Positions 1 to 36,291 of a stretch of DNA of 36,291 nt are shown here, in pieces; the first letter of the stretch is position 1, and every line of letters begins with the position of its first letter. A model generated the notes under the pieces. It worked only from the letters and a program-made list of their open reading frames with translations, did not search any database and was not told the origin of the DNA. The position numbers were made by a program, and so were the translations under genes. Source of the stretch: a virus. Location: UHGV virus genome UHGV-0200858. One strand, written 5' to 3'.

Positions 1-30
1 GTACCCATCAACACACGAGAGGATACAACG

Positions 31-300
31 ATGAACATTACCAAAGCAATCCATAACTATGCTCGCCGCCGTGGAATCGAACTTCAACTCGAAGATGAGC
101 AGGTTAGATTCTGGGAGATAGAACAAGATTGTGAATGGATGTTCAGCTATTCGATTGCTCAATGTGGTTGCTTGTTCTGGAAAGGTAATGTGTATCTTCC
201 TCGCGATATTAAAGAAGAACTTCCGGCGATGATTGGCACCGATAAGAAGTTAAAGGAAGTCTTAGATTTTATCTACAAAGAGTTTATTAGCAAGAAGTAA
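31..300 (+). CDS. hypothetical small protein (89 aa)
   Basis: ORF with a good Shine-Dalgarno (GAGAGGA) upstream of the ATG, followed by a hairpin terminator; no recognisable domain. Confidence 0.5.
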   Translation: MNITKAIHNYARRRGIELQLEDEQVRFWEIEQDCEWMFSYSIAQCGCLFWKGNVYLPRDIKEELPAMIGTDKKLKEVLDFIYKEFISKK

Positions 301-310
301 TTTCTAATTT

Positions 311-337
311 GGTGGGTGCAATTCCCACCGCTTTTTA
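311..337 (+). terminator. rho-independent terminator (approx coordinates)
   Basis: GGTGGG / CCCACC stem with 7 nt loop followed by CTTTTT, directly after the 31..300 ORF. Confidence 0.55.
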
Positions 338-353
338 AACTGGAGAATCAAAC

Positions 354-434
354 ATGTTAGCTTTTATCTCATTCGTGGGAGGTAGTCTCACAACTATGAT
401 CAGCCTTTCTTATATTGTCGTTAGTATGGGGTGA
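354..434 (+). CDS. possible tiny hydrophobic peptide (26 aa), approx coordinates
   Basis: ATG preceded by GGAGA; translation MLAFISFVGGSLTTMISLSYIVVSMG is almost entirely hydrophobic; below ORF-track size cut-off, hand-translated. Confidence 0.15.
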   Translation: MLAFISFVGGSLTTMISLSYIVVSMG

Positions 435-437
435 GCA

Positions 438-563
438 ATGAAACAATTTCATGATGGCATTTCATCTAAGACATTCAAGAAAGAATATAGCGGATTGTGT
501 ATTAACTGGATTGATTTGATTGGTGCGGTTGTGTTTGGTCTGGTAATTAGCATCAATTTTTAA
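438..563 (+). CDS. possible small membrane peptide (41 aa), approx coordinates
   Basis: ATG preceded by GGGGTGAG; hand translation MKQFHDGISSKTFKKEYSGLCINWIDLIGAVVFGLVISINF has a C-terminal hydrophobic helix. Confidence 0.2.
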   Translation: MKQFHDGISSKTFKKEYSGLCINWIDLIGAVVFGLVISINF

Positions 564-604
564 CGATATAAATATATCGTAATTCATTCAAAGAGGATTC
601 AATT

Positions 605-946
605 ATGAAAAAGACTATCTACGCAATTATTGTTTCTGTGTGTGTTGGTGGCATCGGTGGATTTGTTTGTGGGTATGACTATTCCGATACTCAACATCAA
701 GAGACTATCCGGTCAACTAAGGCTGAGATTAAGGATCTGAATCAGGAGATTAGCCAGTTAGAAAATGCTCTCTCACTCAAAGATAGTGAATATAGCGAGG
801 TTTATGCAGAGAAACAAAAATATTGGAAAGAGAAAGATAATCTCGTCGTTTACGGGATGAAATTGTGTAAGAGCATGAAGGATGAGCGCAGTTGCTTAAT
901 GGAACTTGCCCTTAAAGGTAACGTGACCATCGACTTCAAAGACTAA
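605..946 (+). CDS. membrane-anchored coiled-coil protein (113 aa)
   Basis: N-terminal hydrophobic helix (IYAIIVSVCVGGIGGFVCG) then a heptad-like coiled coil with C-terminal Cys residues; AAGAGGA SD; architecture resembles i-spanin/Rz-like or superinfection-exclusion proteins. Confidence 0.5.
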   Translation: MKKTIYAIIVSVCVGGIGGFVCGYDYSDTQHQETIRSTKAEIKDLNQEISQLENALSLKDSEYSEVYAEKQKYWKEKDNLVVYGMKLCKSMKDERSCLMELALKGNVTIDFKD

Positions 947-977
947 TTAAATTCTAATAACAAGAGGAAATTCAATT

Positions 978-1223
978 ATGAAAAAGATTATCGCTGGTAT
1001 CGTTCTTTCTTTAGGTCTGGTTGGTGCTGCCACTGCCGATCAATATGTACAGGGTGATAGTGTTAAACGTGCAGCCGTTGTTACTTCCCTGAATCAATTG
1101 TGTAGTGAAATAGCTGTACTGGCTGGTCAACCTAATGATGAAGAACTTATTACCGCGTGTATCTGGAGTCATGTAGAGGATATTAATATTCGTGATGCTC
1201 GACTGAAAGGTAAAAAATACTAA
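978..1223 (+). CDS. small secreted protein with signal peptide (81 aa)
   Basis: N-terminus MKKIIAGIVLSLGLVGAATA-DQ is a typical Sec signal peptide with AxA cleavage site; no lipobox Cys; shares N-terminus and RBS context with the 605..946 gene. Confidence 0.5.
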   Translation: MKKIIAGIVLSLGLVGAATADQYVQGDSVKRAAVVTSLNQLCSEIAVLAGQPNDEELITACIWSHVEDINIRDARLKGKKY

Positions 1224-1239
1224 TGACTTACTAACCAAT

Positions 1240-1275
1240 GCCCCTATCGTTATAATACGCGGTAGGGGCTTTTTT
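1240..1275 (+). terminator. rho-independent terminator (approx)
   Basis: GCCCCTATCG ... CGGTAGGGGC stem followed by a T-run, after the 978..1223 gene. Confidence 0.6.
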
Positions 1276-2968
1276 GTTTGGAAATGGTATGAAAACTAAA
1301 CTGTATTCGTATATTCGCTTCTCGTCTATGCGTCAGAATGATGGTTCGAGTTATGAACGACAAATCAGGATGGCTAGAGAGATTGCGGCAAAGTATGACC
1401 TTGAACTGGTAAATGATTATCAGGATCTGGGTGTATCTGCGTTTAAGGGTGCTAACTCTAAAACAGGTGCGCTATCTCGTTTCCTTGATGCAATTGGTAG
1501 ATCCGTTCCTGTTGGTAGCTGGCTATTCATTGAAAACTTGGACCGTTTATCCCGTGCCGATATTGTCAGTGCGCAGGAGTTGTTCCTTTCGATCATTCGT
1601 CGGGGGATCACTATCGTTACGGGTATGGATAACAAGATCTACTCGCTGGATACTGTTACCGCTAACCCGATGGACCTGATGTTCTCCATCCTTCTATTCA
1701 TCCGCGGTAACGAGGAAAGCCAGACTAAGCGCAATCGTACTAACTCAAGCGCATTGATTAAGATTAAAGCTCATCAAGAAAATCCACAAAATCCGGCTGT
1801 TGCAATCGAGGAAGTTGGAAAGAATATGTGGTGGACTGATACCACATCTGGTTATGTGCTTCCTCATCCGGTCTTCTTCCCTATTGTTCAGGAGGTTGTG
1901 GAATTACGGAAGAATGGACGTTCAACCGCCGAAATACTGGATCACCTTAACGAGACATATACACCACCACCAGCGGTTAGTAATAAGAAACATTCAAAAT
2001 GGTCACGGGCAATGGTTGAAAGATTGTTCCATACCCGCGCTTTGATTGGTATCAAGGAAGTCTCGGTAGATGGCGTTAACTATGAGTTAAACAATTATTA
2101 CCCGCGTGTTATTGATGACCCTACGTTCTATCACCTTAAGAAAAATATTGGTGCTAGAGCATGGAACTTCGGAGACAAGGAAGAAGTTAAACCGATCCCC
2201 CTGCTTAGTGGTATTGGCCTATTGAAATGTGATCATTGCGGTTGCGCTATGGTTAAAGTGAAGGGAACGAACAAACGTTCTGACCAGTATCGTTATACAT
2301 GTGATGCGACCCGTTCACGTAGACTTGATTGCGAGCATCCAAACTGGAGTTTTCGAGGTGATCAATTAGAGAAAGCTGTATTGCAATTGCTGGCTGATAA
2401 AATCTGGATTGCTGAGGATAAGGCTAACCCGGTTCCGGCGTTGAAAGTACAGATTGATGAAATATCACGCAAGATTGATAACCTGATCGCCCTTTCTGCT
2501 ATGACAGGAGCAACGAAGGAACTAGCCGATCAGATTACTGCCCTTAATAGCGAGCGTGAAACACTCTACAATCAGATTAAGATGGCAGAAGAGGAAATGT
2601 ATTCTGTAGACTCTCAAGGCTGGGAGAAGCTCGCAGAATTTGATTTAGAAGATGTTTACAATGAGGAACGAATCAAGGTTAGATTCAAGATTAAGCAAGC
2701 TCTAAAGCGGATCGGGTGTAGCAGGATTGACAGAAACAAAAACTTGTTTGTACTGGAATACATCGATGGAAAGACCCAGAGAGTTGTAATAGAAAATTCA
2801 AGAGGAACGAGGAAAGGACAAATATTTGTCGATTTGAAGACTATCAATGATAGGCAGATTCTGGAAAGTAACGGGCTTGTTTTGCATCCATGTTTAGACA
2901 TGCTGACAGATAAAGACTGGAAACCAGAAGAGGAAATACCAGGTCCATTACAGGAATTTGGAATTTAA
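1274..2968 (+). CDS. large serine recombinase (resolvase/invertase N-terminal catalytic domain + recombinase domain + zinc ribbon + coiled coil)
   Basis: N-terminal YSYIRFSSMRQ...R motif typical of serine recombinase catalytic domain; central Cys cluster CDHCGC...C...C (zinc ribbon); C-terminal coiled coil; 564 aa is typical of the large serine recombinase family. Track start is a TTG; first ATG is 15 nt downstream (about 1289). Confidence 0.85.
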   Translation: MFGNGMKTKLYSYIRFSSMRQNDGSSYERQIRMAREIAAKYDLELVNDYQDLGVSAFKGANSKTGALSRFLDAIGRSVPVGSWLFIENLDRLSRADIVSAQELFLSIIRRGITIVTGMDNKIYSLDTVTANPMDLMFSILLFIRGNEESQTKRNRTNSSALIKIKAHQENPQNPAVAIEEVGKNMWWTDTTSGYVLPHPVFFPIVQEVVELRKNGRSTAEILDHLNETYTPPPAVSNKKHSKWSRAMVERLFHTRALIGIKEVSVDGVNYELNNYYPRVIDDPTFYHLKKNIGARAWNFGDKEEVKPIPLLSGIGLLKCDHCGCAMVKVKGTNKRSDQYRYTCDATRSRRLDCEHPNWSFRGDQLEKAVLQLLADKIWIAEDKANPVPALKVQIDEISRKIDNLIALSAMTGATKELADQITALNSERETLYNQIKMAEEEMYSVDSQGWEKLAEFDLEDVYNEERIKVRFKIKQALKRIGCSRIDRNKNLFVLEYIDGKTQRVVIENSRGTRKGQIFVDLKTINDRQILESNGLVLHPCLDMLTDKDWKPEEEIPGPLQEFGI

Positions 2969-3004
2969 GCGGCCTAAATCGACGTATAACGAGCTAAAAC
3001 AGTT

Positions 3005-3030
3005 AAGGGGTACAGATGTACCCCTTTTTA
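3005..3030. terminator. bidirectional hairpin terminator between convergent genes (approx)
   Basis: AAGGGGTACA GAT GTACCCCTT hairpin flanked by A-run and T-run, between the recombinase (+) and the 3042..4226 (-) gene. Confidence 0.6.
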
Positions 3031-3041
3031 ATTTAATTGCG

Positions 3042-4226
3042 TTAGGCAGCGTCTAAAGGGCTTAAATCAAGTTCTAGGTCTTCCGGTTCCAAATCAGCTA
3101 ACTGTGCATTCATCCACTTAGCTAAATCTTCATCGGTTACGACAAAATCCGGTTTTTCTTCCCATTCATTAAGATACATCGGACGATCTGGATTTGCTGC
3201 GATATATTCATTAATGAAGTTTAATGCTTTCTTGAGAGTTTTAATCGGGCGTGTTTCCGTCCATCCATCCGGTACATCATGTTTTGAGGCAGTCTTACCC
3301 TTAACATGAATCTTTAACCCTTTCTCTAAGTCGATTGCTTGCCATCCCTTTTCAAACAGATGATTGAATATCAATTCATGTTTGTATGTGGATAATTTGG
3401 CTTGTTGTTGCATTCTCTTTTTAGAGTTGGAGGCGAAACCGATTTTAATAAATTCATCTCCTAATTTCTGAATATAGAGATAAGTCGGACGTGTCTTGTC
3501 AATTCTTCTTAGATTATATTCACCTGTTTCTAATGAACGTTGGTTTGAAAGGCAATCTGGACAAATCAGGATTCCACGGTCGCAAGGTTCACGGGTAGTT
3601 AAATCCCAATCCCCATGATGCGGACAATTACAGCGCAAGAGTGTCTCTCTTACTCCCTTCTCTTCTGACAACCAACAAACGAAGGTGTATCCGAATTCTT
3701 TACACAATTCCTTAATCTGTGCTTCTCTCTTAGCTCTCAATTCAGTGAGCGTATTACATCCGTTTCTACGAGCCAGATTGCTCTCTTTGGTGCAGCATGA
3801 ACAGTTTAAATTTCTACGGAATGCCAGATTAAGAGGGATAGTGAATTCTTCGTTGTGATTCAAGCAGAGAAATTTTGCTTTGGTTCCTTTGACGTGATTG
3901 TATTCACCATCCCAACCTAAAAACTGTTTCCCTTCCTGTTTCCCTCGTTCGGTTAGCTGGATTTTATATCCTTCCTCATTCCTTTTAAGGCTTCCCCCAT
4001 TGATTTGATTTAACTGTTTCAGTGCATGAATGCTGGAAAGTCCGGTAGGTTGATATGACACCTGAAAACGGGCTTCTACTCCTGATACATACGGTAAAAC
4101 AAAACCATCGAAGGTTAATCCGTGTTTCTCACACTGTTTAATGATTCTGGCTTGCACTTCTTCCGGTGTCTTCTGGTTTGGGTGAGTCTTAACAAAAACA
4201 ATCTCGTTTGCAAATGCTAGTTTCAT
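3042..4226 (-). CDS. GIY-YIG-like (T5orf172-type) domain protein with N-terminal Cys/His zinc-ribbon-like repeats; putative homing-endonuclease-like nuclease
   Basis: C-terminal half contains YLYIQKLGDEFIKIGFASNSKKR...E motif resembling GIY-YIG/T5orf172 fold; upstream CxxC/CxC/HH clusters (LNCSCC, RCNCPHHG, CPDC); paralogous to the 4381..4950 product. Confidence 0.55.
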   Translation of the reverse strand: MKLAFANEIVFVKTHPNQKTPEEVQARIIKQCEKHGLTFDGFVLPYVSGVEARFQVSYQPTGLSSIHALKQLNQINGGSLKRNEEGYKIQLTERGKQEGKQFLGWDGEYNHVKGTKAKFLCLNHNEEFTIPLNLAFRRNLNCSCCTKESNLARRNGCNTLTELRAKREAQIKELCKEFGYTFVCWLSEEKGVRETLLRCNCPHHGDWDLTTREPCDRGILICPDCLSNQRSLETGEYNLRRIDKTRPTYLYIQKLGDEFIKIGFASNSKKRMQQQAKLSTYKHELIFNHLFEKGWQAIDLEKGLKIHVKGKTASKHDVPDGWTETRPIKTLKKALNFINEYIAANPDRPMYLNEWEEKPDFVVTDEDLAKWMNAQLADLEPEDLELDLSPLDAA

Positions 4227-4279
4227 AGTAGTTTCCTCAAAAATTATAAGTTCACTACTATTTATTGAAGAGAATTATC

Positions 4280-4310
4280 TCACTATTGCATCCTCACTAA
4301 CTTTGATATA
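4280..4310 (+). promoter_or_regulatory. sigma70-like promoter candidate for the 4381.. operon (approx)
   Basis: TTGCAT - about 17 nt - TATAAT upstream of the 4381 start, in the divergent intergenic region. Confidence 0.35.
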
Positions 4311-4380
4311 TAATCCGCGACCCTAAAGTTACAAACCAACCATATTGAGGGTTTTGCCTATAAGTTAAAGTGAGGTCTAT

Positions 4381-4950
4381 ATGATTCCAGTAATGGCTAA
4401 AGATATTGTTTTTACTCCTAAATCATCCCGTGCTGTAACTCCACCAGCATTAGAACAACGCATTCTTACTCACATCAAAGATAATGACTTACCGTTAGTC
4501 TTTCATGGCTTTCTGGGTGAGTTTAAAGGGCTTCACACGAGAATTGCTCTTACATGTACTCGCTGCGGTGATAGAGCCGACAAATCAGCTACTAACCTGC
4601 TTAATGAAGGCAAACGCTGTGTATGTTTCAAGAGTGATTATTTTCAATATAAAGCGGGTGTACCATATCTCTATGTGATGCAATCCGGCGATATTGGTAA
4701 ATTTGGTGTAACAAAATCGATTATCAAACGTAGGGTTAATCTGGGCTTACGTAATCCCGGTCATAACTTTGATATTGTCTATGCTCGTGAAATGCCATCA
4801 ATGAAACATGCGCTAGCCACTGAGCGAACAATAAAGAGAATGTTGGATGTGGGTATAGGCGGGATTGAATACGGCAAAACTGAAACATTCCACTACTGCA
4901 ATAAATCACTAAACAATATAAAGAATATTGCAAGTGTGGAGTGGAACTAA
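4381..4950 (+). CDS. GIY-YIG-like (T5orf172-type) domain protein with zinc ribbon (189 aa)
   Basis: CTRCG...CVC Cys cluster followed by YLYVMQSGDIGKFGVTKS...RRVNL...E motif; stop overlaps the start of the downstream helicase gene (TAATG). Confidence 0.55.
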   Translation: MIPVMAKDIVFTPKSSRAVTPPALEQRILTHIKDNDLPLVFHGFLGEFKGLHTRIALTCTRCGDRADKSATNLLNEGKRCVCFKSDYFQYKAGVPYLYVMQSGDIGKFGVTKSIIKRRVNLGLRNPGHNFDIVYAREMPSMKHALATERTIKRMLDVGIGGIEYGKTETFHYCNKSLNNIKNIASVEWN

Positions 4951-6440
4951 TGCAAGATATTAACATTCATTTTCAAGATTACAGTTTCGTTAAGGTTGAA
5001 TGCTCTCCTTCTATCGGAATGGAATTAAGAGATTATTTCTCGTTTGAGGTTGAAGGGGCTAGATTTAGCCCCCGCTACAAATATTCCGGCTGGGATGGAA
5101 AGATAAGACTGTTTACGCATGAGAACACCTTACCAATCGGATTATTGAAAACATTGGGTATCTTCGCTAAAAACATGGGCTATAGCGTATGGGTAGACCC
5201 CAGATTGCTTGAGAAGGAAGATGTAACCAAAGAATCAATTGATTCATGGATTGACTCTTTAGAAGTGTATTCCGGTAGCAATAAAATCAATCCTTACTGG
5301 TATCAAAGAGAGGCAGTATTTCAGGGTATCCATAATCGCCGTAGAATGCTGGTTCTTCCTACCAGTGCCGGAAAGTCATTGATTGCTTGTATGCTGTCTC
5401 GTTGGTACTTAGAGAACTACACCGGAAAGATTCTAATCATTGTCCCGACTACATCGCTGGTGGTTCAAATGAGGGATGATTTTGTCGATTATAGGCTATT
5501 CCCTTATGAAGCAATCCATACAATGATGAGTGGTAGCGGGAAACATCCGGGAGACAGGTTAATCACTGTTTCAACATGGCAATCAGCTTGCAAGATGCCT
5601 CCTGAATGGTTCCGACAATATGGAATGTTGATAGTTGATGAATCGCATCGTGCCAGCGCAAAGAATATCACCAATATCATCAACGGAATGAATCATTGTC
5701 AGTTTAAAATCGGTATGACTGGTTCCCCGAAAGAATCAAAGTGCCATTTAATGCAATATGTCGGGTTGTTCGGTGATATTCAGAAGATAGTAGCAATCAA
5801 GCAATTGATGGATGACGGACAAGTTACCCAGCTTAAAATTAATGCTCTCTTCCTTAAGTACAAAGATGAAGAATGTAAAGCAATGCGGGGCAAAGATTAT
5901 CAGGAAGAGATTAAATTCATCAATGCTCATAAGGTAAGGAATAAACTGGCTTGTAATTTGGCCTTAAAACTCGCCAGGAAGCAAGAAAACGTATTTTTGA
6001 TGTTCCGGTACTCTAAGCATGGAAAAATGCTTTATAATGCGTTACAGCGCGTTTACGATAAGGTTTATTACGTTTCCAGTGAGATTACCACCGCCGAACG
6101 CGATGCCTTAAAGAAAATGGCTGAAAATGAGAAAGGATTGATTGTAGTTGCCTCCTATGGTGTTTTCTCTACTGGCGTTTCAATTAAGAATCTTCATCAT
6201 GTCATTTTCGGTCATCCAGTGAAGGAATCAACCATTGTCCGGCAATCAATAGGACGTGCTCTTAGGAAACATGGTAGTAAAGCAATTGCGTATGTGTGGG
6301 ATTTGATAGATGTGATTTGTTCGAAAGACAAGAAAGGAAAATATACACGCAAGAATTATGCTTTAACTCATGGCCTCCAGAGAATCAATACTTACATATC
6401 AGATCGCTTCGAATATGTAACGAAAACAATCGAGATTTAA
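4941..6440 (+). CDS. uvsW: SF2 DExH-box helicase, UvsW-like
   Basis: Walker A LPTSAGKS, DExH box IVDESH, motifs ILIIVPTT, VYYVSSE, IVVASYGVFSTG, QSIGRALRKHGSK; overall layout and several motifs recall T4 UvsW (from memory, not searched). Track start is GTG; likely ATG start at about 4950 overlapping upstream stop. Confidence 0.8.
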   Translation: MELMQDINIHFQDYSFVKVECSPSIGMELRDYFSFEVEGARFSPRYKYSGWDGKIRLFTHENTLPIGLLKTLGIFAKNMGYSVWVDPRLLEKEDVTKESIDSWIDSLEVYSGSNKINPYWYQREAVFQGIHNRRRMLVLPTSAGKSLIACMLSRWYLENYTGKILIIVPTTSLVVQMRDDFVDYRLFPYEAIHTMMSGSGKHPGDRLITVSTWQSACKMPPEWFRQYGMLIVDESHRASAKNITNIINGMNHCQFKIGMTGSPKESKCHLMQYVGLFGDIQKIVAIKQLMDDGQVTQLKINALFLKYKDEECKAMRGKDYQEEIKFINAHKVRNKLACNLALKLARKQENVFLMFRYSKHGKMLYNALQRVYDKVYYVSSEITTAERDALKKMAENEKGLIVVASYGVFSTGVSIKNLHHVIFGHPVKESTIVRQSIGRALRKHGSKAIAYVWDLIDVICSKDKKGKYTRKNYALTHGLQRINTYISDRFEYVTKTIEI

Positions 6441-6483
6441 TAAATAGGGGCTTTAATGCCCCTTTATTCTACGGAGATTAAAA

Positions 6484-6747
6484 ATGATTAGCTTTAAACG
6501 TTTTTTGGTTGAGGCCGCTATTGACGGTTTTATGAGTAAGATTTATTCTTGTAATACTATCGAGGGATTAAATGAACTTGAGGCATATTATGAGAAGCGC
6601 AAGAAAGAAACAGAATTGAAACCTGCTGATGATATTTCGATCCGTGATGCCATCGCCGGACGACGCAAGCAACTGGAAGCGGAGAACGAGCCGGATGAGG
6701 AGCCAGAAGAGGATTTTTCTATCATCAATTTGTGCCAGATAAAATAA
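6484..6747 (+). CDS. small acidic protein, possible UvsW.1-like helicase partner (87 aa)
   Basis: Immediately downstream of the helicase, acidic C-terminus (EAENEPDEEPEEDF); position and size recall T4 uvsW.1; followed by terminator. Confidence 0.35.
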   Translation: MISFKRFLVEAAIDGFMSKIYSCNTIEGLNELEAYYEKRKKETELKPADDISIRDAIAGRRKQLEAENEPDEEPEEDFSIINLCQIK

Positions 6748-8798: not shown

Positions 8799-11700
8799 TT
8801 AAGAAACAGAAATACCAGTAGCGGCTTTCTTAGTTACCATTACCGTTAGATCGCTGATATATGCACTTGGGGTATAGTTGTTAACGCCCTTACAGTAAAC
8901 TTCAAAAGTCATTGTTACTGCCCCATGTCCGGCTGGCATGTCAATAACTCCACTGTACATACAGCCAGAAGTTGCAGTGCGATCATATAGAACACCACCA
9001 TTTTTCTTAATGATTAGTCGGCAAGTATCCCAATGATCGCTACTTTCGCCACGACGAACAGACCCGTTATGATGAATCGCTGGAATCACTATTTGGCGAT
9101 CGAATGGATGATCATCTTCGACCCTTACAGTGATTGCACCATCAGGCCAGTTTGGTTGGCGATGCGGGAAACTCCTACCAACCACTTTCACGAAGTCACC
9201 ACGCACCTGATTAGCATCAAGCATACCCAAAATGCGGCAACTTGAATTAATCGTTACGTTGTTCATTTCGCCGGAATCAGCCACCAGATGACCACGAACG
9301 TTAGCGTGTCTAAAATGACAAGTGCCATCTTTGCCAATATACCATCCATCGTTACCATTCCAGTTATAAGACTGGATATAGTTACCAATTTTAGCATTAT
9401 CGATAGAGCCATCAATAATATGACCAGTTCCGATCTGTGCGTGCTGGATGTGAGCGCCGTTAATCTGGGCTGTTCCGATCTTAGCCGTGGTAATAGCCGC
9501 ATCGTTAATCTGGGCTGTACCGATCGCCGCATTACGAATCATCGCATTATCGAGATAAACCTTGTTACCTTCGATACCAAACGGGCAAACTTCCGATCCG
9601 TCTTGTGGAGCTACCGCGATTTTATCAGCCGTAAAGATGATTCTCGTCGGTTCTGCCGGATCATTGGTTGCGCTCATGTGAATACCAGCCACACGACCAT
9701 CTGCATTAACTGCCAGATTATATTTGCTGTTAATGGTTCCCTTCAAAGCATCGATCTTAACGTCCGCTTCTTGGTTAACACCAGCAATCTTGCCATCCAT
9801 TTCTACCCGAACTTGATCAATCTTACTTGCGCTTGCTGCCTCACTGGTAGCAATTGCTTGTTTCAGCGTAGTAGCAGATGCGCTAACTTCCGACGTAATA
9901 TCGCCTTTCAGTTCAGCTTTAACCTGATCAATCTTAGTAGAGCTTGCTTGCTCACTGGTAGCAATCAGACTCTTGAGAGTATCGGCTGAGGCTTGGACCG
10001 TCTGTCCTGTCTCGGTAGTAATCTGTTTATGCATTGCATCAATCTTAGCATCGGCATTAGCGCCAGCTTGAGCAATAGCATCAGCGATAGTTTCATCTAA
10101 GCGATCTTGTAAACCAATCAGGTCTTCCAGTGCTTCTTTGTCCTGATCGTCCCAGCTAATCGTAGACTTCATCGGCATGAAATAAGGTTCAGACCAAACA
10201 GCATCATCCATCCCGAAAATATCGTAATGTGCCGCACGAAGATAATAATCACCATCAGCCAAATCAAAGGAAGTATGGCTAACGCTGTTAGTAGTCACCG
10301 CCCTTGCATCAGAGAAAGTATTGTCGGTTGCATACTGGATGATTGACCCTGCATAGTCATGTTCTACGTCATTAGCCCAGCTAACAAACGCAGTATTAAA
10401 GCCACCACGCGCACTAAATCCTTTCATTGGCTTATGTTGTGGGTTAATAGCCACTAAACGCGCTGGGGCGCTTACAGAGTTGTTATAACCTTTAGCGGAT
10501 ACTTCTACCGTCAATTCACGGGAAAGGCCGTTAAACTGGTTCATATCAAGCGTATACGTCCACGATTCAGGATCGCGGGTACGGTACTGAATAGACTTAC
10601 CAGCCTTGTTAGTTACCTTGATAATGTAGGCTTCAAACAGGTCACTAAACTTGTTAGTTTCACCGTTGATAACCACATCTAAGGATTGCTGATTGTCCCA
10701 TTCAATAATCAGATCATTGCCTTCGAAAGTACCAGGTGTGCTACCCTGATTTTTGATGCGAATCACTGGAGTAGGCAGTTCATAGGTAACTTCTGGATTC
10801 TGGTTAACCAGTTCTACCCAATCAGAACGGGCGATGATACCGAAAGCACACACGCGGTAATCGTAGGAACGATCTTTTGCCAGTGCATTGATATTGAAAA
10901 TTTGCTGTGAAGTCTGTCCCAGCTTAATCCAGTTAGGTGATCCACTCACTTTGTAATCAATCTGGAAGCCGTAACGGTTGAAGTCTTCCGGTGCATCCCA
11001 TGTCAAAGTAACGTTTTTACCGTGGATTGTCTCACCAGTTGCCTTAATTCTGAAATTAGTCGGTTTCTGTACTGTCATTGAATCCGGTAAACCAGTTGGT
11101 CTATTGTCTGGATTCGCCGCATAGTTCAGGTCAGTATAAACCTGAGAATTATATTCTGTGGCGGTGATAGTCATCATCCCAGCAATGCCAGAATCAATCG
11201 AGCGATCAATTGCAGTAATACGCCATAAGGAATTATTCAGCTTCAATTCATCATAGGTTACGCTGATAACATCCCAAACTTCGGCAGTGAATGCGTCAGT
11301 AGTCATAAAGCTGATAACCTGAGTGATACGAGATTTATTTCGCTCAATGCTCGCGAGTTTATCAATCTGATCTTTAGACTTAACGAAACGATATTCTACA
11401 TCCTTAGCAATAATTCGACCATCTGCGCGAACAGTAGCATCGTTTTCAGCATCAGCCGGATAACGTAGCATTTGCTCTGAATAGTCAATTGATGGTTCTT
11501 GATACATCGCGTTAATGGTATTGAAATAACCGTTAGTGCCACCTGTTTTCAGTGATACCTTACCCATCATGATATTGTCTTCATTGAAGGTATGCTTAAC
11601 AATATCAGGAGCATCCAGTTTCAGCGTAATACGTCCAAAGGATTCGAACATCACCCCGCCGAAAGTCTGCATAAGATTAGTCAAGTTCTCTTTAAAGCTG

Positions 11701-12545
11701 GCGTTCGGATCACATGCACCGTTTGAATGTAGATCCATCTGGCGTACTTGTTTACGTACTTTCAGGAATGAATCAACGTTAATGTTTTCAATTGGTACGG
11801 ATAAGCCATATTTTTCATTTGTTAGGTAGTGGAAAATCTGATCCACGCCGTTAGTGCTAGCCTCAATAGCATTGGTTTCAAGGTTACGGATTTTAAGGCC
11901 GCAAACGTCTACTGCTACCTGGCTATTTGGCTGGAGAATATCAACACCAGCAGCAAGAGATTTGTCATCACGACGTAACACAATACACATGGTCGCAATG
12001 CCGTTACCCTTGAAAGCGTCGGTCCAGTCTGAGCCTAAATGACGTTTTGCCAGCGACAAAGCGGTGTTAGGATTCTTGCCCGTGCGGAACTCGACTTCTA
12101 ATACTTTACGATATTCTTCTTTAATGTTGCCCTTATCGAGAATACCATCACGGATCGTCATGTTCTTACCAACAAGAACATTTTTATTATCAATAAAGAG
12201 TGCTTTGTAATGGTCGATTTCACCCTCGGCTACAGAGAAGATTTGCACTAGCTTATTGTTTTCTTGCTTAGAAACTGCTTTGTAAACACAGTTTGTGCCA
12301 GTGCGGGTAGTACCGAAAACGACTGGTATCACCGCTTTCGGATCGTTTGATGTTCCTAGTGTCACCGCATTATCTGGGCTTTGTACTTTAGGTGTTTTTG
12401 GTGCGCCTACAGTGGAAGCGATCAAAGTCATTGCACCAGCAGCCATACCGATAGCGACTGCGGTCATAACAGAAAATGTTGCAGCAGCAGCCATCCCAGC
12501 AGACGCACCAGCAATAACCGCGCCTACCAATATTTCAAATCCCAT
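8799..12545 (-). CDS. central tail fiber / host specificity protein (J-like), 1248 aa
   Basis: Size, position at distal end of tail module after NlpC/P60 K-like gene, Ala/Gly-rich hydrophobic N-terminus, fibronectin-III-like repeats in the middle (by composition), divergent C-terminal receptor-binding region. Confidence 0.7.
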   Translation of the reverse strand: MGFEILVGAVIAGASAGMAAAATFSVMTAVAIGMAAGAMTLIASTVGAPKTPKVQSPDNAVTLGTSNDPKAVIPVVFGTTRTGTNCVYKAVSKQENNKLVQIFSVAEGEIDHYKALFIDNKNVLVGKNMTIRDGILDKGNIKEEYRKVLEVEFRTGKNPNTALSLAKRHLGSDWTDAFKGNGIATMCIVLRRDDKSLAAGVDILQPNSQVAVDVCGLKIRNLETNAIEASTNGVDQIFHYLTNEKYGLSVPIENINVDSFLKVRKQVRQMDLHSNGACDPNASFKENLTNLMQTFGGVMFESFGRITLKLDAPDIVKHTFNEDNIMMGKVSLKTGGTNGYFNTINAMYQEPSIDYSEQMLRYPADAENDATVRADGRIIAKDVEYRFVKSKDQIDKLASIERNKSRITQVISFMTTDAFTAEVWDVISVTYDELKLNNSLWRITAIDRSIDSGIAGMMTITATEYNSQVYTDLNYAANPDNRPTGLPDSMTVQKPTNFRIKATGETIHGKNVTLTWDAPEDFNRYGFQIDYKVSGSPNWIKLGQTSQQIFNINALAKDRSYDYRVCAFGIIARSDWVELVNQNPEVTYELPTPVIRIKNQGSTPGTFEGNDLIIEWDNQQSLDVVINGETNKFSDLFEAYIIKVTNKAGKSIQYRTRDPESWTYTLDMNQFNGLSRELTVEVSAKGYNNSVSAPARLVAINPQHKPMKGFSARGGFNTAFVSWANDVEHDYAGSIIQYATDNTFSDARAVTTNSVSHTSFDLADGDYYLRAAHYDIFGMDDAVWSEPYFMPMKSTISWDDQDKEALEDLIGLQDRLDETIADAIAQAGANADAKIDAMHKQITTETGQTVQASADTLKSLIATSEQASSTKIDQVKAELKGDITSEVSASATTLKQAIATSEAASASKIDQVRVEMDGKIAGVNQEADVKIDALKGTINSKYNLAVNADGRVAGIHMSATNDPAEPTRIIFTADKIAVAPQDGSEVCPFGIEGNKVYLDNAMIRNAAIGTAQINDAAITTAKIGTAQINGAHIQHAQIGTGHIIDGSIDNAKIGNYIQSYNWNGNDGWYIGKDGTCHFRHANVRGHLVADSGEMNNVTINSSCRILGMLDANQVRGDFVKVVGRSFPHRQPNWPDGAITVRVEDDHPFDRQIVIPAIHHNGSVRRGESSDHWDTCRLIIKKNGGVLYDRTATSGCMYSGVIDMPAGHGAVTMTFEVYCKGVNNYTPSAYISDLTVMVTKKAATGISVS

Positions 12546-13120
12546 TATTCACCCCCGAATCTATAAACTTGTTCATAGTCAATGTCTGAAACAGGAATGG
12601 TCATCCAGATACCATCTTCTTCAACGAGGCCATAACCGGAATAATGAGGAACTACGGAATAATAATTACGGTTTCCTAATTTGTGGGCTGTGACCAGTAA
12701 GTCGCCGTCCTGTAAATCATCAGTGACTAATTTGAAATGTTTCTTTATTGGTTGAAGGATGTTTGAATATCCGCTTAATTCTTTGCAGATTTTCAAGCCT
12801 TCTTCTTTAGTTGAATATTTTTTATAAAGAGAATTATATAGGTCAGTACCAGCGAGAATATCGATGATCTTACATGCAATGAGATTGCAATCATTCTCGC
12901 CTTGAACGAACTCCTGACCTATTAAAGAATTGATGTAATCAGTGATAAGCCTAGTTTTTAGCATGTTGAATACCTCCATGCTGTTATTTACTAGGCTTAG
13001 GGAGAAGGGATTATTTCTTCGATGAATGCCACTTGCTTTCCGATTGCCAGCGACCCGCCCTTGAGAAGAATAGATCGTTCTCGTTTCCAACATAGGATCG
13101 GTGGATACCATCGGAAGCAT
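12545..13120 (-). CDS. tail assembly protein, NlpC/P60-family (lambda gpK-like)
   Basis: QGENDCNLIACKI contains Cys in an NlpC/P60-like context with downstream His; sits between L-like and J-like genes. Track ORF overlaps upstream gene; probable true start at internal Met about 12966. Confidence 0.55.
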   Translation of the reverse strand: MLPMVSTDPMLETRTIYSSQGRVAGNRKASGIHRRNNPFSLSLVNNSMEVFNMLKTRLITDYINSLIGQEFVQGENDCNLIACKIIDILAGTDLYNSLYKKYSTKEEGLKICKELSGYSNILQPIKKHFKLVTDDLQDGDLLVTAHKLGNRNYYSVVPHYSGYGLVEEDGIWMTIPVSDIDYEQVYRFGGE

Positions 13121-27364: not shown

Positions 27365-29269
27365 TTAGAACGATGTTACCCAGCTACGGCCTCTATTTGG
27401 GCGTCTGGCGATGTTTTTACGTTGTGGTCGTGTGATTGGCTTATTTTCTTCGATTTGCTCGTCAGATTGCGATTTAGGAGCTTTTACGGGTTCTTCGACA
27501 ACACGGTTTAAGCTGTCTTTCATTGCGATGAGTTTATCCCATGACATTTTTGAAAGGACGTAGCGAGAAGCCGCTGTAGCATACACGGCGCAGTCGAGCG
27601 CCTCGTTCCTAACGCCTGGGTTCTTTACCCATCTCACGCCAGTAGTAGTACGCTTGACAGATTCACTTAAAAGCTGATCGAGATAATCATCAGGAACGGT
27701 GTCTGATATTTCTAAGCCAATATGAGGATTATCTTTCAGGTTCCTAGCCAACATTTCACGAAATGCAGTTTTACCCACATTAACACCCAACATAAGCAAT
27801 TCATGACCACCTGTGCGGGTAGGTTTAACCGGAATGATCGGAGCGTTACCAGCAGAACTACCTTTGATAGCGTGTAAGTTCTTCCACTTGCCGCAAATAC
27901 GGTATCCAGCTTGAGTGAATCGACCGTTCGATGTATCAAGGAAGCTGGCGAGCATAGGAACACGATCACCCGATACAGTAGTAAATCTGGTTTTATGGAA
28001 GTTGATTAATCTATCCCATACAGGGGATTCATATCGTTCACAGTTATGATCGTAAAAGCTGCGGTGATCCAGAATATAAATCTTATCCTTTGCCACGCCC
28101 ATGATTGTAGTTTCTGCGCGATCTAATTGCTGGTCAGTACCCGCACACAAGAAAATCACGTCATCAGGGATATTCTCGATAGAAACATCTGTTTTGAGTT
28201 GTTCCAGTTCATTTGCTTCTACTGCCGTGTCCTGATCGTCGTATACCTTGCCTAACACGGTGTTATAAAATGATTGTAAATCAAAGGATTGCCACGCATG
28301 ACTAAAATCAACCACACAAGCGCGGATCGTGCTGAAAGGTGAATACAGACGGCTGATCCAGAATCCTGCTACTTCACTTTCACGGGTTGCTCTCCACTCG
28401 CCTTGTGCTACTGCCCTGATCCGCTCTCCTTCTGTCCATGCGTTCTTACAGTGGGGGCAAATATAACGAGCGGTATCAGGATCGGGTAAGTTCTTACCAT
28501 CGATGTTACGCCATTCAAATTGAACGTTTTCCCACTCGATCACCTGGTGTCTACCGCAATGAGGACACGGAACAAAAAACATACGCATATCGCTTGATAA
28601 CCATTGCTGGTTAATGCTTCCCAGCTTACTGGTCGGGGTACTGGATACGACTAATCGACCTTCATCGCCAAAGGTAGTTAAACGGTTAGCAGCCAGTGCC
28701 ACCGGATCACCTTCTTCTGAGGCTGTAGCAGCATCGATTTCGTCAAGCAATCCAACCTTTGCGGTCTTACCACGTAGGGTTGATGGACTGGTAAGCGATA
28801 CCATGTACAGGAAGTGATTCGTTTTTAGCTGTAGCTGGTTATTGTTGTTAACCGCATTGCGATCATTCTTGTCTGTAACCACGTCTTTTAATGCATCACA
28901 TGCTTCGATAGACGGTCGGATCTTACCAGCGAGATATTGAGACATTTCTTTAGCGGTTGATTGTCCGATAATCATATTGCATGGATCGTTAGCCATCTGG
29001 TTAAACAGGATGCCGTTCAGGATGGTAGTCTTTCCGATCTGCGCACTGGTCATCAGAACATACTTTTTCTTGTTCTCAAGGAAAGGAGCATCAATCATGC
29101 CTTTCTGGAATGACAGCAATTTAACTTTATCCCCAGCTTGAGGACCATCTACCAGCACCATATTCGCTTCGCACCATTCCGATGGAAGGAGTTTAGGCGG
29201 TGGCGTAATATATTTTGCGGCATTTCTAAGAATTCTTTTTAGTTTTGTTTTGTTCGAAATTAGTTTCAT
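27365..29269 (-). CDS. terL: terminase large subunit (634 aa)
   Basis: Size, position upstream of portal, N-terminal ATPase-like region (Walker A-like MTSAQIGKT, Walker B-like VGLLDEID) and C-terminal nuclease-like region with conserved acidic residues. Confidence 0.8.
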
Positions 29270-30301: not shown

Positions 30302-31219
30302 TTACAGTCCGAAGTGTTCCAGTGATCCAGCATTCTGACGAATCAGCAAAGCAGTATTATTGACGATTGCTCGTGAGTTGTTAGGTTGTGGCAATTTCAA
30401 AGTTGCTGCCTTTTCTTCTTCAAGCAATCCGAGTTTTACGAGATGCGGGATAGCATCAGCAGTGAACTCGATCTGACCGTGTGCTGACATACGAGCGAAC
30501 ATATAGCCAGGAGGAAGCAGATCATAACCGTTAGGCTTACCAGAAGCATCCAGACGACGCTCAAGAACACCAGCAGCACATAACCCTTTCAGAATCATTT
30601 GTACCTTCACAGAGCCTCGTTTTTCGCCTAATAAGCGGGTTAAGCTGTGTGTGTCGATAGCTTTACGTACATGCAATTCAACCAGTTGATTCTTTTCCTG
30701 AATCAGTTGTTCGTTTGCAGCTTCCAGTTCCATTGCCTCGCGAATCCAATCGAGCTTAGTCATGTTTGCGTATGGGTTGACTTGCTGAGAACGCAGTTTT
30801 TCATTTTCTTCTTTCAGTCGTTTCCATTCCTGAATAACAACCATTCGACGCTTAACATCGTAACCAGTGACAAGAGTCAGAGTCATTTCTTCGTCTAAGT
30901 GATATACTGGTTCTTTAACAGCATATCCTAAGTTATTGATTCTCTCGACAAATTCAGTTTTGAGCTGATCGATAATACCTAAAGATTCGTACATTTCGCG
31001 AATATCGCGCATTACATTGCTGTGCTTCTTATCGGTGAATTCCGCGATCTGACGGGAAGACATGGTAAGCGGTTTGGTGTTATCAACAACCAGAGACACA
31101 GAAGCAGTTTTAGTAGTCATAGTTTTAACAGTATTCATAGTAAAAATTCCCCTTAAACGGTTTTGCGATTGATACTCCATTTTGATTAACTGTCCACACG
31201 CCAACGGCGCGCGGAACAA
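30302..31219 (-). CDS. rha: Rha-family phage regulatory protein (antirepressor-like)
   Basis: LTMSSRQIAEFTDKKHSNVMRDIREM matches the conserved N-terminal Rha motif; C-terminal region with coiled coil. Track start likely over-extended; probable start at Met about 31138 preceded by AAGGGG. Confidence 0.65.
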   Translation of the reverse strand: MFRAPLACGQLIKMEYQSQNRLRGIFTMNTVKTMTTKTASVSLVVDNTKPLTMSSRQIAEFTDKKHSNVMRDIREMYESLGIIDQLKTEFVERINNLGYAVKEPVYHLDEEMTLTLVTGYDVKRRMVVIQEWKRLKEENEKLRSQQVNPYANMTKLDWIREAMELEAANEQLIQEKNQLVELHVRKAIDTHSLTRLLGEKRGSVKVQMILKGLCAAGVLERRLDASGKPNGYDLLPPGYMFARMSAHGQIEFTADAIPHLVKLGLLEEEKAATLKLPQPNNSRAIVNNTALLIRQNAGSLEHFGL

Positions 31220-32203: not shown

Positions 32204-32753
32204 ATTACACTAGTATTTATAACGAGAATTTTTTATCTATTTGGAAGTGATTGGTATTCAGTCTGGCTAAAGCCATCCTTCATGTACTAGAACAAGAATT
32301 ATACAAAACAAATTTTCTTCTATAATAATATTATATAATAGTTCTTCGTTTTGATTAAATGATCATCAAACCAGTATTGACGCTCTCCAGAGCGTCTGCG
32401 AAGCAATCTATTACCTTCTAGTATTATCAAAGTGATTCTAACTACCTTTCTAGTAACCAGTTAGTAACCACCTAGTATTAAATCCCTTTCTAAGAAAATC
32501 CTTTCAAAAGTGAGTGAACGCCGTAGGCGTGAACGTGAGCGAAGCGAACTATCCAATCCCTTTCGAATCCTGCTTGCAGGTCTTAGAAGGTGTTGGTGGG
32601 CGCTACGCGCACGGCTACGCCGTATTCTTTTTGTGAGATCTTTCTTGAACGCTAGTGAGAGAAAGCGAACAAAAAGGAGAACGTTAGTTCGAGTTTTATA
32701 TTCTATGGTCTGTGTGGTCAAATGCTTTTGCAAATCATACACTTACGTGATTA

Positions 32754-32878
32754 AAGTGTAGGGTTAGTGTAGGTGTGTAGGTTTCATAGTGTAGGTTTGG
32801 ACATGTTCTAGTGTAGGTTTACTGGCTAGTGTAGTGTAGGCCAATCCCTTTCATGTGTAGGTTTGTAGTGTAGGTTTT
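32754..32878 (+). repeat. direct-repeat (iteron-like) array, about 8 copies of GTGTAGG(T)TT
   Basis: Read directly: AGTGTAGGGTT, AGTGTAGGTG, TGTGTAGGTTT, AGTGTAGGTTT, AGTGTAGGTTT, AGTGTAGTGTAGG, TGTGTAGGTTT, AGTGTAGGTTT, all same orientation, spacing 10-20 bp, in non-coding AT-rich region. Confidence 0.8.
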
Positions 32879-32896
32879 TCATCAAAAATTTTGATA
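32878..32896. promoter_or_regulatory. near-palindromic site ATCAAAAATTTTGAT (operator candidate, copy 1)
   Basis: CATCAAAAATTTTGATAAAAA immediately after the iteron array; dyad symmetric. Confidence 0.4.
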
Positions 32897-32959
32897 AAAA
32901 ATTCTTGTATATTATTTAACCAAAAAATCATCAAAAAATAGCTGTAAGTTAATGATTTA

Positions 32960-32993
32960 AAAGGAATTGTCAAAAGGTCACCGTGCTATAATA
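32960..32993 (+). promoter_or_regulatory. extended -10 promoter candidate (TGcTATAAT) (approx)
   Basis: GGAATTGTCAAAAGGTCACCGTGCTATAATAGG: TGnTATAAT extended -10 with upstream TTGTCA-like element. Confidence 0.45.
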
Positions 32994-33029
32994 GGTTATA
33001 AAGGTTGATAATCCTGATCAGCCGTTTTC

Positions 33030-33046
33030 ACACAAAAATTTTGATA
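33030..33046. promoter_or_regulatory. near-palindromic site CAAAAATTTTGATAG (operator candidate, copy 2)
   Basis: Second copy of the AAAAATTTTGATA dyad about 150 bp from copy 1 and about 27 bp upstream of a consensus -35. Confidence 0.4.
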
Positions 33047-33072
33047 GTCATTTCTCGCCTAGATCATGGGTA

Positions 33073-33101
33073 TTGACAATAGTCAAGAACTATTTTATAC
33101 T
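33073..33101 (+). promoter_or_regulatory. near-consensus sigma70 promoter (TTGACA-17-TATACT) driving the rightward early unit
   Basis: TTGACAATAGTCAAGAACTATTTTATACT; the -35 lies within the inverted repeat TTGAC-N4-GTCAA. Confidence 0.6.
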
Positions 33102-33428
33102 TTTTCTCACTGGTGGGGGTTGAAATTTTCAAAACAATCCCCATATAGATGATAGGCAAGAATTTCTCTTGTATAAATACATGCATGAAAATGATTGTTC
33201 ACTTCTGAAATCTCCAGATTCACTGTTAATTCATACAGCACTGGTTAGATATACAGTGCTTTTTCGGTTGAATAATGTACGAATTGATTAATTATTAATC
33301 TTCTCTTTAGCAATTCGTGCTCCCACTGATCGGATATACAGTAGTTTTACAGGGTTTTTCGAAAATCATTTTATAAATAGATATGTCGAGAGCGAAAAGC
33401 TCTTTTTAAAGTTTTCATTATTCCACAA

Positions 33429-35647: not shown

Positions 35648-35730
35648 ATCAGAAAAGTTAAGCGGGGGAGGTTATCCCCCGTAGGCGTTGCCCATCAACA
35701 CCCTTCACACATATATTTAGTATCTATTTT

Positions 35731-36291
35731 TTAGGACACATCGAATTCATCATCTTCTTCGGATTCTTCTTGTTCTTCCGGTTCATCCATTAACGGTAAT
35801 TCTTCTTCGTCCTCGTCTTCACCTAATTCTGCATTTTCGAACATATCCCCTACTTCATTTAAACGACGCTCGATGATCTCCCTTAGCTTATTCTTCAACG
35901 TTTTCTGATCGGTTGCAGATTCGAGAATTTCTAAAGCATCGATTGTGGCGATCTGCAAAATAGTCTGCTTCACTTTCCCGCAGTATTCCGCTAGTTCCTG
36001 TTCTACATACCCTACTGGAATAAGTTGGTTCATCGCTTCCTGGTTCTCGCGTTCGGCAGCATCTGCTAAAGCACGTTCACGGCGTAATTTCTCGACATCG
36101 ATTTGTTCCTTAATAGAAGTTTCTTTGAGCGGGTTAATGATATTTTTCAAGACCCATTCTGTACCCTCTTTTGCTGGTACGCGTCGTGTATTGGTATTAA
36201 ATGGCATTCCTCGTTGCTGCCATTTCTTAGCTGCGTTGATTGTATAGCCGTATAAGCGGGAAATTTCTGTAAGGGTTAATTCTTCTTTCAT
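35731..36291 (-). CDS. Nu1-like winged-HTH DNA-binding protein, putative terminase small subunit (186 aa)
   Basis: N-terminal LTLTEISRLYGYTINAAKKWQQRGMP resembles the lambda Nu1 HTH (QNWQEQGMP), followed by EKLRRE coiled coil and acidic C-terminus; the window ends exactly at the start codon. Confidence 0.5.
   Translation of the reverse strand: MKEELTLTEISRLYGYTINAAKKWQQRGMPFNTNTRRVPAKEGTEWVLKNIINPLKETSIKEQIDVEKLRRERALADAAERENQEAMNQLIPVGYVEQELAEYCGKVKQTILQIATIDALEILESATDQKTLKNKLREIIERRLNEVGDMFENAELGEDEDEEELPLMDEPEEQEESEEDDEFDVS

Follow-up and report, generated by a model that had tools for sequence, protein, structure and literature searches.

A serine recombinase gene of the virus genome UHGV-0200858 as the very probable integrase of a prophage in Escherichia coli ycdX

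Introduction

The virus genome UHGV-0200858, a stretch of 36,291 nucleotides that was analyzed over its full length and to which we refer as the window, carries near its start a gene for a large serine recombinase (LSR), which we call int. An earlier reading of the letters alone, hereafter the original prediction, placed this gene in an otherwise structural or lytic-looking phage segment, and considered that it might encode the integrase of a temperate phage, a resolvase, or an acquired piece of cargo. The question raised by the locus is which of these roles the enzyme plays. Here we present evidence that it is very probably the serine integrase of a temperate phage, caught in this sequence as a 36,662-bp prophage in the ycdX gene of Escherichia coli.

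The product of int is a large serine recombinase

The open reading frame (ORF) of the original prediction is present at positions 1274-2968 of the plus strand, and encodes 564 amino acids (aa) when read from TTG. We could retain the frame and its end, and not the TTG start. The TTG at 1274 lies within the T-tract of the upstream terminator, and the approximately 50 close homologues are all 557-561 aa long and begin with MKTKLYSY; for these reasons we place the start at the ATG 15 nt downstream, at position 1289, giving a protein of 559 aa. All residue numbers used below (R10, S12, the four zinc-binding cysteines and so on) refer to this 559-aa form.

The gene encodes a genuine large serine recombinase, which belongs to a familiar class of enzymes and is typical of it in all features assessed in silico. 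Hidden Markov model searches identified the Pfam domains Resolvase (PF00239, aa 11-158), Recombinase (PF07508, aa 203-292) and Zn_ribbon_recom (PF13408, aa 315-373), each above its gathering score (55 bits against a cutoff of 23.3 for PF00239), and a match to phrog_95, 'integrase', among the PHROGs (E=5e-62). In an alignment of 16 homologues, with identities down to 29%, residues R10, S12, Q16, D85, R86 and R89 are invariant, as are the Cys4 ligands C314, C317, C338 and C348. Residue S12 aligns with the serine of the Y-x-R-V-S-T motif of PDB entry 3guv; a sequence search of the PDB returned a weak match to the catalytic domain only.

The AlphaFold2 model of the protein (mean predicted local distance difference test, pLDDT, 78.7) contains a catalytic domain, a long helix E, a helical recombinase domain, a beta zinc ribbon and, after the ribbon, a helical hairpin (382-437) that constitutes the coiled coil. 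The approximate domain limits are aa 1-125 (catalytic), 126-165 (helix E), 166-300 (recombinase), 301-375 (zinc ribbon), 376-440 (coiled coil) and 441-559 (a beta-rich region). When this model was used as a Foldseek query, the best PDB matches were the full-length serine integrase-DNA complexes 9dxf, 9dxh and 9y66, the PhiC31 integrase (9tep, 9rah) and the LI integrase (4kis), with E values from 1e-16 to 1e-9. The invertase Gin (3uj3, E=0.07) and other small invertases matched the catalytic domain alone. Small serine recombinases have about 180-200 aa and a C-terminal helix-turn-helix (HTH), and a protein of 559 aa with recombinase and zinc-ribbon domains falls outside that group. The catalytic-serine N-terminal domain, Cys4 zinc ribbon and coiled coil that had been read from the letters are thus borne out by the Pfam matches, the alignment and the model, including the Ser/Arg constellation of the active site.

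The window is nearly an entire prophage

When the recombinase and the last gene of the window were looked up for exact matches, both led to the 170-kb ENA contig ERZ27276237:k141_10469, to which the window is identical (100%) over its first 12,968 and its last 6,561 bases. On this contig the element has a size of 36,662 bp and is inserted in E. coli ycdX, with ycdY and csg on one side and ghrA on the other. The window covers almost all of it: the TT at the crossover of the left attachment (att) site, attL, lies 13-14 nt before window position 1, and that of attR lies 358-359 nt beyond the window end. What had been taken for a structural or lytic-looking segment is in fact essentially a complete prophage, whose head, tail, terminase, lysis and int ORFs are full-length. 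The same holds for E. coli PSJ-22, where the region corresponds to a prophage with about 40 genes that separates the two halves of ycdX, next to csg, ycdZ and ycdY at one end and ghrA at the other. Its genes include those for a gpA-type terminase, portal, capsid, tail tube, gpJ-like tail tip and endolysin, and a 'recombinase family protein' is the sole recombinase annotated in it. The int gene is located about 1.3 kb from attL, and at this distance from the element end in every copy.

Integrated copies, for which the original prediction had proposed a search of bacterial genomes, are found at ycdX in E. coli chromosomes. Among the 5,426 complete E. coli genomes, 58 have a match to window positions 1-6244, with an identity of about 91% and a chromosomal location in each case; attB is intact in 5,369 of them. 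Homologues with 88-98% identity are common on chromosomal contigs of E. coli, Shigella and Salmonella, and 27 blocks of an assembly collection contain the identical 559-aa protein according to their index (contigs were read for 24 of them). The IMG/VR database holds 27 provirus contigs with the gene, which starts at most 1.7 kb from a contig end in 25. In Salmonella, homologues of 75% identity are likewise found in a csg-ycdZ-ycdY-ycdX' context, and the TT at their junction is the equivalent one. A restriction of the homologues to strictly virulent phages would have spoken against an integrase, and the opposite was found: every close homologue lies in a chromosome or a predicted provirus. A protein scan of genome contigs yielded only a 512-nt contaminant contig and an unrelated weak match.

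Attachment sites and crossover

The att sites were derived by aligning the junctions on k141_10469 with ycdX of strain K-12. The attB site in ycdX reads ...CATATTTGGGA-TT-TCCGGGATGGC... (right arm also given as TCCGGGATGG), where TT corresponds to ycdX nucleotides 400-401, in codon 134 of 245. The attL site reads ...CATATTTCGGA-TT-GCCTAATATCAT and continues, from window position 1 onwards, with GTACCCATC... (in short, ...ATTTCGGA-TT-GCCTAATATCAT followed by GTACCC...), and attR reads ...GTTATTGGGGGTTGACTACGTTCGGG-TT-TCCGGGATGGC... The attP site reconstructed from these, GTTATTGGGGGTTGACTACGTTCGGG-TT-GCCTAATATCATGTACCCA..., is about 54 bp long and has dyad-symmetric arms; the sequence spanning it is ACGTTCGGGTTGCCTAATATC (a C variant exists), and the repaired attB sequence is ATTTGGGATTTCCGGGATG. 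The attL junction is identical in 15 further lysogens, apart from minor variants of the P' arm, and the junctions are also as in PSJ-22.

The bases adjoining TT differ between attB and attP, being A versus G on one side and T versus G on the other, and the exchange is therefore confined to the 2-nt TT. As read from these in silico mapped junctions, such an exchange is a signature of serine integrases and incompatible with the overlap of a tyrosine integrase, which needs 6-8 identical bp. The core TT is non-palindromic. Two motifs recur in both attP arms, GTTATTG(N)GG on the outside and TT(N)GG(N) on the inside; the outer one, an inverted motif (GTTATTGGGGGT / ACCCACAATAAC), lies 14 nt from TT on either side. 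Across strains, conservation of the P arm starts exactly at the outer motif, 26 nt from TT, with unrelated cargo sequence beyond it.

The original prediction had proposed to map the att core at 300-600, 1224-1290 or 2969-3041. These intervals were wrong: what occurs there is terminator-like hairpins and a small ORF, and the att sites are located at the ends of the prophage, just outside the window, which includes no more of them than the outer part of the P' arm. There are two copies of the 11-mer CCCATCAACAC in the window, at 4-14, in the outer motif of the P' arm, and at 35691-35701, downstream of the terS-like gene; the chance expectation is about 0.02 occurrences, and there is no clear co-variation of the two copies in other strains.

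A second target and the residues that track it

Sister prophages whose integrases are 87-93% identical are inserted in another gene, hicB, at nucleotides 304-305 in codon 102 of 138; they came to light as copies in IMG/VR and in complete genomes whose left flank differs from that at ycdX. The insertion site follows the protein: recombinases at least 97.3% identical to that of the window were found in ycdX in 16 of 16 cases, and those with 86.8-92.7% identity were found in hicB in seven of seven. Between the ycdX and hicB groups, 30 differences are fixed: the recombinase domain holds 14 and the zinc-ribbon domain 11, and neither the catalytic domain nor helix E has any; the concentration of 25 of the 30 in the recombinase and zinc-ribbon domains has a binomial P of 3.6e-7. 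Within the hicB group, variation is mostly in the catalytic domain. These differences in the DNA-binding domains track the insertion site, and target choice is therefore tied to the DNA-binding part of the protein, which is independent support for its role as an integrase. The two attB sites are alike near the core, TTT(G/A)GG(A/T)-TT-(T/G)CC, and both encode G-(N/K)-P-K. One hicB-type phage has an attP nearly identical to that of the ycdX type. As for the toxin gene hicA, it is frameshifted in the hicB lysogen 14EC029 and intact in the hicB lysogen L3Cip3.

Proposed mechanism and alternative explanations

By analogy with PhiC31, Bxb1 and LI integrases, dimers of the integrase would bind the approximately 54-bp attP and the attB in ycdX, and synapsis would take place through the coiled coils. 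Cuts staggered by 2 nt would then be made by Ser12 in all four strands, at the central TT, as described for PhiC31, Bxb1 and A118/LI, and rotation of the subunits would exchange the half-sites, generating attL and attR and splitting ycdX at codon 134. As in those systems, the reaction would be unidirectional, and excision by recombination of attL with attR would require a phage-encoded recombination directionality factor (RDF).

Several observations weigh against this interpretation. Firstly, we did not detect the excised form: a 20-mer and a degenerate 24-mer of attP had no match in IMG/VR; an 18-mer had two matches in the JGI metagenomes, which we attribute to chance because they show no similarity to the window; a 77-mer detected separate half-sites only, and no intact attP, in complete E. 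coli genomes; and window positions 1-3000 had no match among the PLSDB plasmids. Secondly, no cultured phage carries the gene. The recombinase gene was absent from deposited phages, the best matches being YbcK of lambdoid phages with 32% identity, no match to window positions 1-4400 was found in phage DNA, and for the major capsid protein the identity to isolated phages does not exceed 43%. Current mobility is left in doubt because neither an excised or circular attP form nor a cultured phage was found. Thirdly, Pfam and PHROGs scans revealed no CI-like repressor, in agreement with the original prediction, and only a Rha/Ant-like regulator (30302-31219); by the same scans, none of the small genes near both ends encodes a repressor, an excisionase or an RDF. 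Finally, int lies directly behind a terminator without a consensus promoter of its own, which leaves its expression unexplained, and K-12 stood in for the pre-integration attB of the element's own host, differing by two single-nucleotide polymorphisms in the B arm.

The lack of an attP-containing sequence in these four collections, of a cultured relative, and of a recognizable repressor or RDF, together with the truncated copies or insertion sequence (IS) elements beside int in a few genomes, would fit a relic: the recombinase would have integrated the element, and the prophage would now be defective or cryptic, having lost excision and re-integration. We consider this unlikely. The ORFs for the phage functions and int are full-length, the identical protein recurs across the assembly collection, and conservation of the attP arms extends exactly as far as the edges predicted for them. 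Moreover, several diverged clades occupy two E. coli sites and one Salmonella site, which points to repeated, recent integration events.

It is very improbable that the gene is an accessory or cargo LSR without a part in integration, like YbcK in lambdoid prophages that have a tyrosine integrase. The closest matches in deposited phages are of the YbcK type and the gene is bracketed by terminators in the manner of a moron, but the 40-gene element has no annotation for a further integrase or a transposase, the gene keeps its place near the element end in every copy, a tyrosine integrase could not use sites that share 2 nt at the crossover, and the differences in the DNA-binding domains track the insertion site. 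That the enzyme acts within the phage genome as a resolvase or DNA invertase, for instance in tail-fibre switching or multimer resolution, is scarcely credible: it has the catalytic domain in common with these enzymes, a weak match to phrog_125 'DNA invertase' (E=3e-11) and tail-fibre genes in the window, but also recombinase, zinc-ribbon and coiled-coil parts in place of the small C-terminal HTH of Hin, Gin and gamma-delta, and there are no convincing res sites and no inverted repeats bracketing any segment, the 13 pairs found in our scan being short, 75-95% complementary, mostly terminator or low-complexity sequence, and none of them convincing.

Of the options that had been put forward for the gene, resolvase and cargo lack support, in view of a sole annotated recombinase and the absence of inverted-repeat recombination sites, and the first, the integrase of a temperate phage, agrees with the chromosomal integration, the position of int near the element end and the 2-nt crossover.

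Surroundings of int and a promoter-like element in attP

The features of the locus are compiled in Table 1. Two further elements of the original prediction, terminators on both sides of the gene and small membrane-protein genes upstream, are reproduced, the former as hairpins and the latter as two products with hydrophobic N-termini. The hairpin downstream of int is also the edge of a variable cargo block in related elements, and many genomes match window positions 295-3129 only.

Table 1. Features of the int locus and of the prophage ends (window coordinates)
Feature	Position	Strand	Basis
Outer part of the P' half-site of attL, GTACCCATCAACAC; TT outside the window	1..14	.	Junction on contig k141_10469
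First prophage gene after attL, 89 aa, no family match	31..300	+	ORF list, Pfam
Terminator-like hairpin 3' of the first gene	310..330	+	Hairpin scan
Small protein, 113 aa: N-terminal hydrophobic segment, then coiled-coil-like region (weak coiled-coil matches only)	605..946	+	Translation
Small protein, 81 aa: signal-peptide-like N-terminus, no family match	978..1223	+	Translation
Intrinsic-terminator-like hairpin of 11 pairs (1240-1269) plus T-run, directly 5' of int	1240..1279	+	Hairpin scan
Large serine recombinase (serine integrase), 559 aa from ATG 1289	1289..2968	+	Pfam, PHROGs, alignment, model
Codon of the predicted nucleophile Ser12, motif YIRFSS (Arg10 codon, 1316-1318)	1322..1324	+	Invariant in alignment; 3guv
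Cys4 zinc-ribbon ligands C314, C317, C338, C348	2228..2332	+	Alignment, PF13408
Coiled-coil hairpin embedded in the zinc-ribbon domain (helices 382-406 and 410-437 of the model)	2414..2608	+	AlphaFold2 model
Bidirectional terminator-like hairpin between int and the convergent GIY-YIG gene	3005..3026	.	Hairpin scan
Last prophage gene before attR, terminase-small-subunit-like (phrog_57)	35731..36291	-	PHROGs

In the reconstructed attP, which occurs in three sequence-divergent types, a sigma70-like promoter spans the crossover, with its -35 element in the P arm and its -10 element in the P' arm (TTGACT-17-TATCAT in types A and B, TTTACA-18-TATAAT in type C). No sigma70-like promoter was found in attL, attR or attB. 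The -10 element, whose end lies 3 nt short of window position 1, has the gene at 31-300 as the first one downstream. Integration would part the -35 from the -10 element, and the rightward operon that starts at position 31 could therefore be expressed from the circular form only. Since two terminators lie between this promoter and int, its role in the transcription of int is uncertain. A perfect TATAAT at 1251-1256 lies within the loop of the terminator hairpin directly upstream of int, and a good -35 element is absent. It is a possible int promoter, because a transcript begun there could not fold the hairpin.

Taken as a whole, it is possible rather than probable that the lineage represents a natural set of integrases, 87-100% identical to one another, that has switched its attB between ycdX and hicB, and that is combined with an integration-state-dependent attP promoter for the attP-proximal operon.

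Comparison with known integrases and recombinases

The PhiC31 integrase, the LI integrase (4kis, A118-like) and the integrases of 9dxf, 9dxh and 9y66 have the same order of domains as the protein studied here, i.e. catalytic domain, helix E, recombinase domain, and Cys4 ribbon with coiled coil. The solved serine integrases also resemble it in having the serine in a Y-x-R-x-S motif, simple att sites of about 50 bp and a non-palindromic central dinucleotide. Insertion inside a host ORF, here ycdX, has a parallel in phage A118, which inserts in comK. On the other hand, identity to the solved enzymes in structural alignments is 13-15%, att sites and host differ, and our protein, whose activity is predicted, has about 100 extra beta-rich residues at the C-terminus, after the coiled coil.

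The YbcK-type recombinases, represented by those of phages 4A7 and Perceval, are 32% identical over 82% of the protein, and have the enterobacterial host range and the LSR architecture in common with the int product. The genes of the YbcK type lie inside lambdoid genomes that have an integrase of their own, and we know of no att site assigned to them, whereas int is the sole recombinase gene of its element and adjoins attP. The recombinases of the Burkholderia phages Bcep22, Bcep176 and JC1, annotated as phage integrases, are 28-30% identical over 84-93%; the gene is at most about 4 kb from a record end in JC1 and Bcep22 and mid-record in Bcep176. The phages and their hosts differ from those considered here, and the att sites are not comparable. 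Homologues of 638 aa in Enterobacter and Citrobacter (the P0090 cluster) have 38% identity over 96% of the protein and are located at the edge of a chromosomal island beside conserved host genes, a position in keeping with a function as an integrase. They differ in having a longer C-terminus and no PF07508 match on record, and their island carries AAA_15/UvrD-helicase (Gabija-like) genes instead of phage structural genes.

Full-text literature on ycdX or hicB in connection with prophages or serine recombinases gave no description of the integrase or its targets, the sole related item being a Cronobacter sakazakii prophage listed in a table as located at ycdX. Neither the att sequences nor the protein motif was found in the accessible part of the supplements to the LSR survey of Durrant et al. 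(2022). As far as could be found, the att sites have apparently not been mapped before.

Other genes of the element

Window positions 4941-6747 encode a T4-type UvsW helicase and UvsW.1, with about 73% nucleotide identity to RB49-like Krischvirus, here in a temperate prophage; the Salmonella relatives additionally have a UvsY homologue. Within the minus-strand gene at 8799-12545, the tail-tip or fibre part at 10213-12601 is 81-84% identical at the nucleotide level to distal long-tail-fibre genes of virulent T-even phages and Krischvirus, which suggests that host-range modules have been exchanged between temperate and virulent phages. The uvsW and tail-fibre matches had first suggested a virulent T4-like phage (Straboviridae) as the context of the window; this was ruled out by the location of the region inside E. 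coli chromosomes. The T4-like resemblance is limited to uvsW/uvsW.1 and part of the tail-fibre gene (73-84% nucleotide identity), and the 36.7-kb size of the element, the ycdX halves at its ends, and its lambda-like tail-tip and gpA-type terminase genes argue against a T4-type genome.

Both the protein encoded at 3042-4226 (minus strand) and the one at 4381-4950 (plus strand) have a CapR homology domain; the annotation by PGAP is of a GIY-YIG nuclease, and faint MUG113/T5orf172 matches are on record for the homologue of the former only. In one relative, an endolysin gene directly follows int and the nuclease and helicase genes (window 3042-6747) are absent. At the other end of the element, the terS-like gene is located about 6.5 kb from the large terminase gene (27365-29269, minus strand), with the Rha/Ant-like gene and genes of unknown function between them. 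The region at 32204-33428, of about 1.2 kb and about 36% GC, lies between divergent genes of the regulatory region, has no plausible ORF and, as in an Rfam scan of the whole window, no Rfam match. It may be an origin or control region.

Implications

The known working of serine integrases is left unchanged by these results. What they provide is that a 'recombinase family protein' becomes a defined integrase with attP, attB, attL and attR at base resolution, and that fixed boundaries are given to a prophage which is carried by about 1% of the complete E. coli genomes and is known from Salmonella as well. In lysogens, either ycdX or the hicB antitoxin gene is inactivated, and phenotypes may result; ycdX encodes a zinc phosphatase, and its operon has been linked to swarming (PMC7046640).

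In addition, the ycdX and hicB variants yield about 30 candidate specificity residues. Serine integrases are used as genome-engineering tools, and these residues form a small set from which the target choice of serine integrases might be understood and re-engineered.

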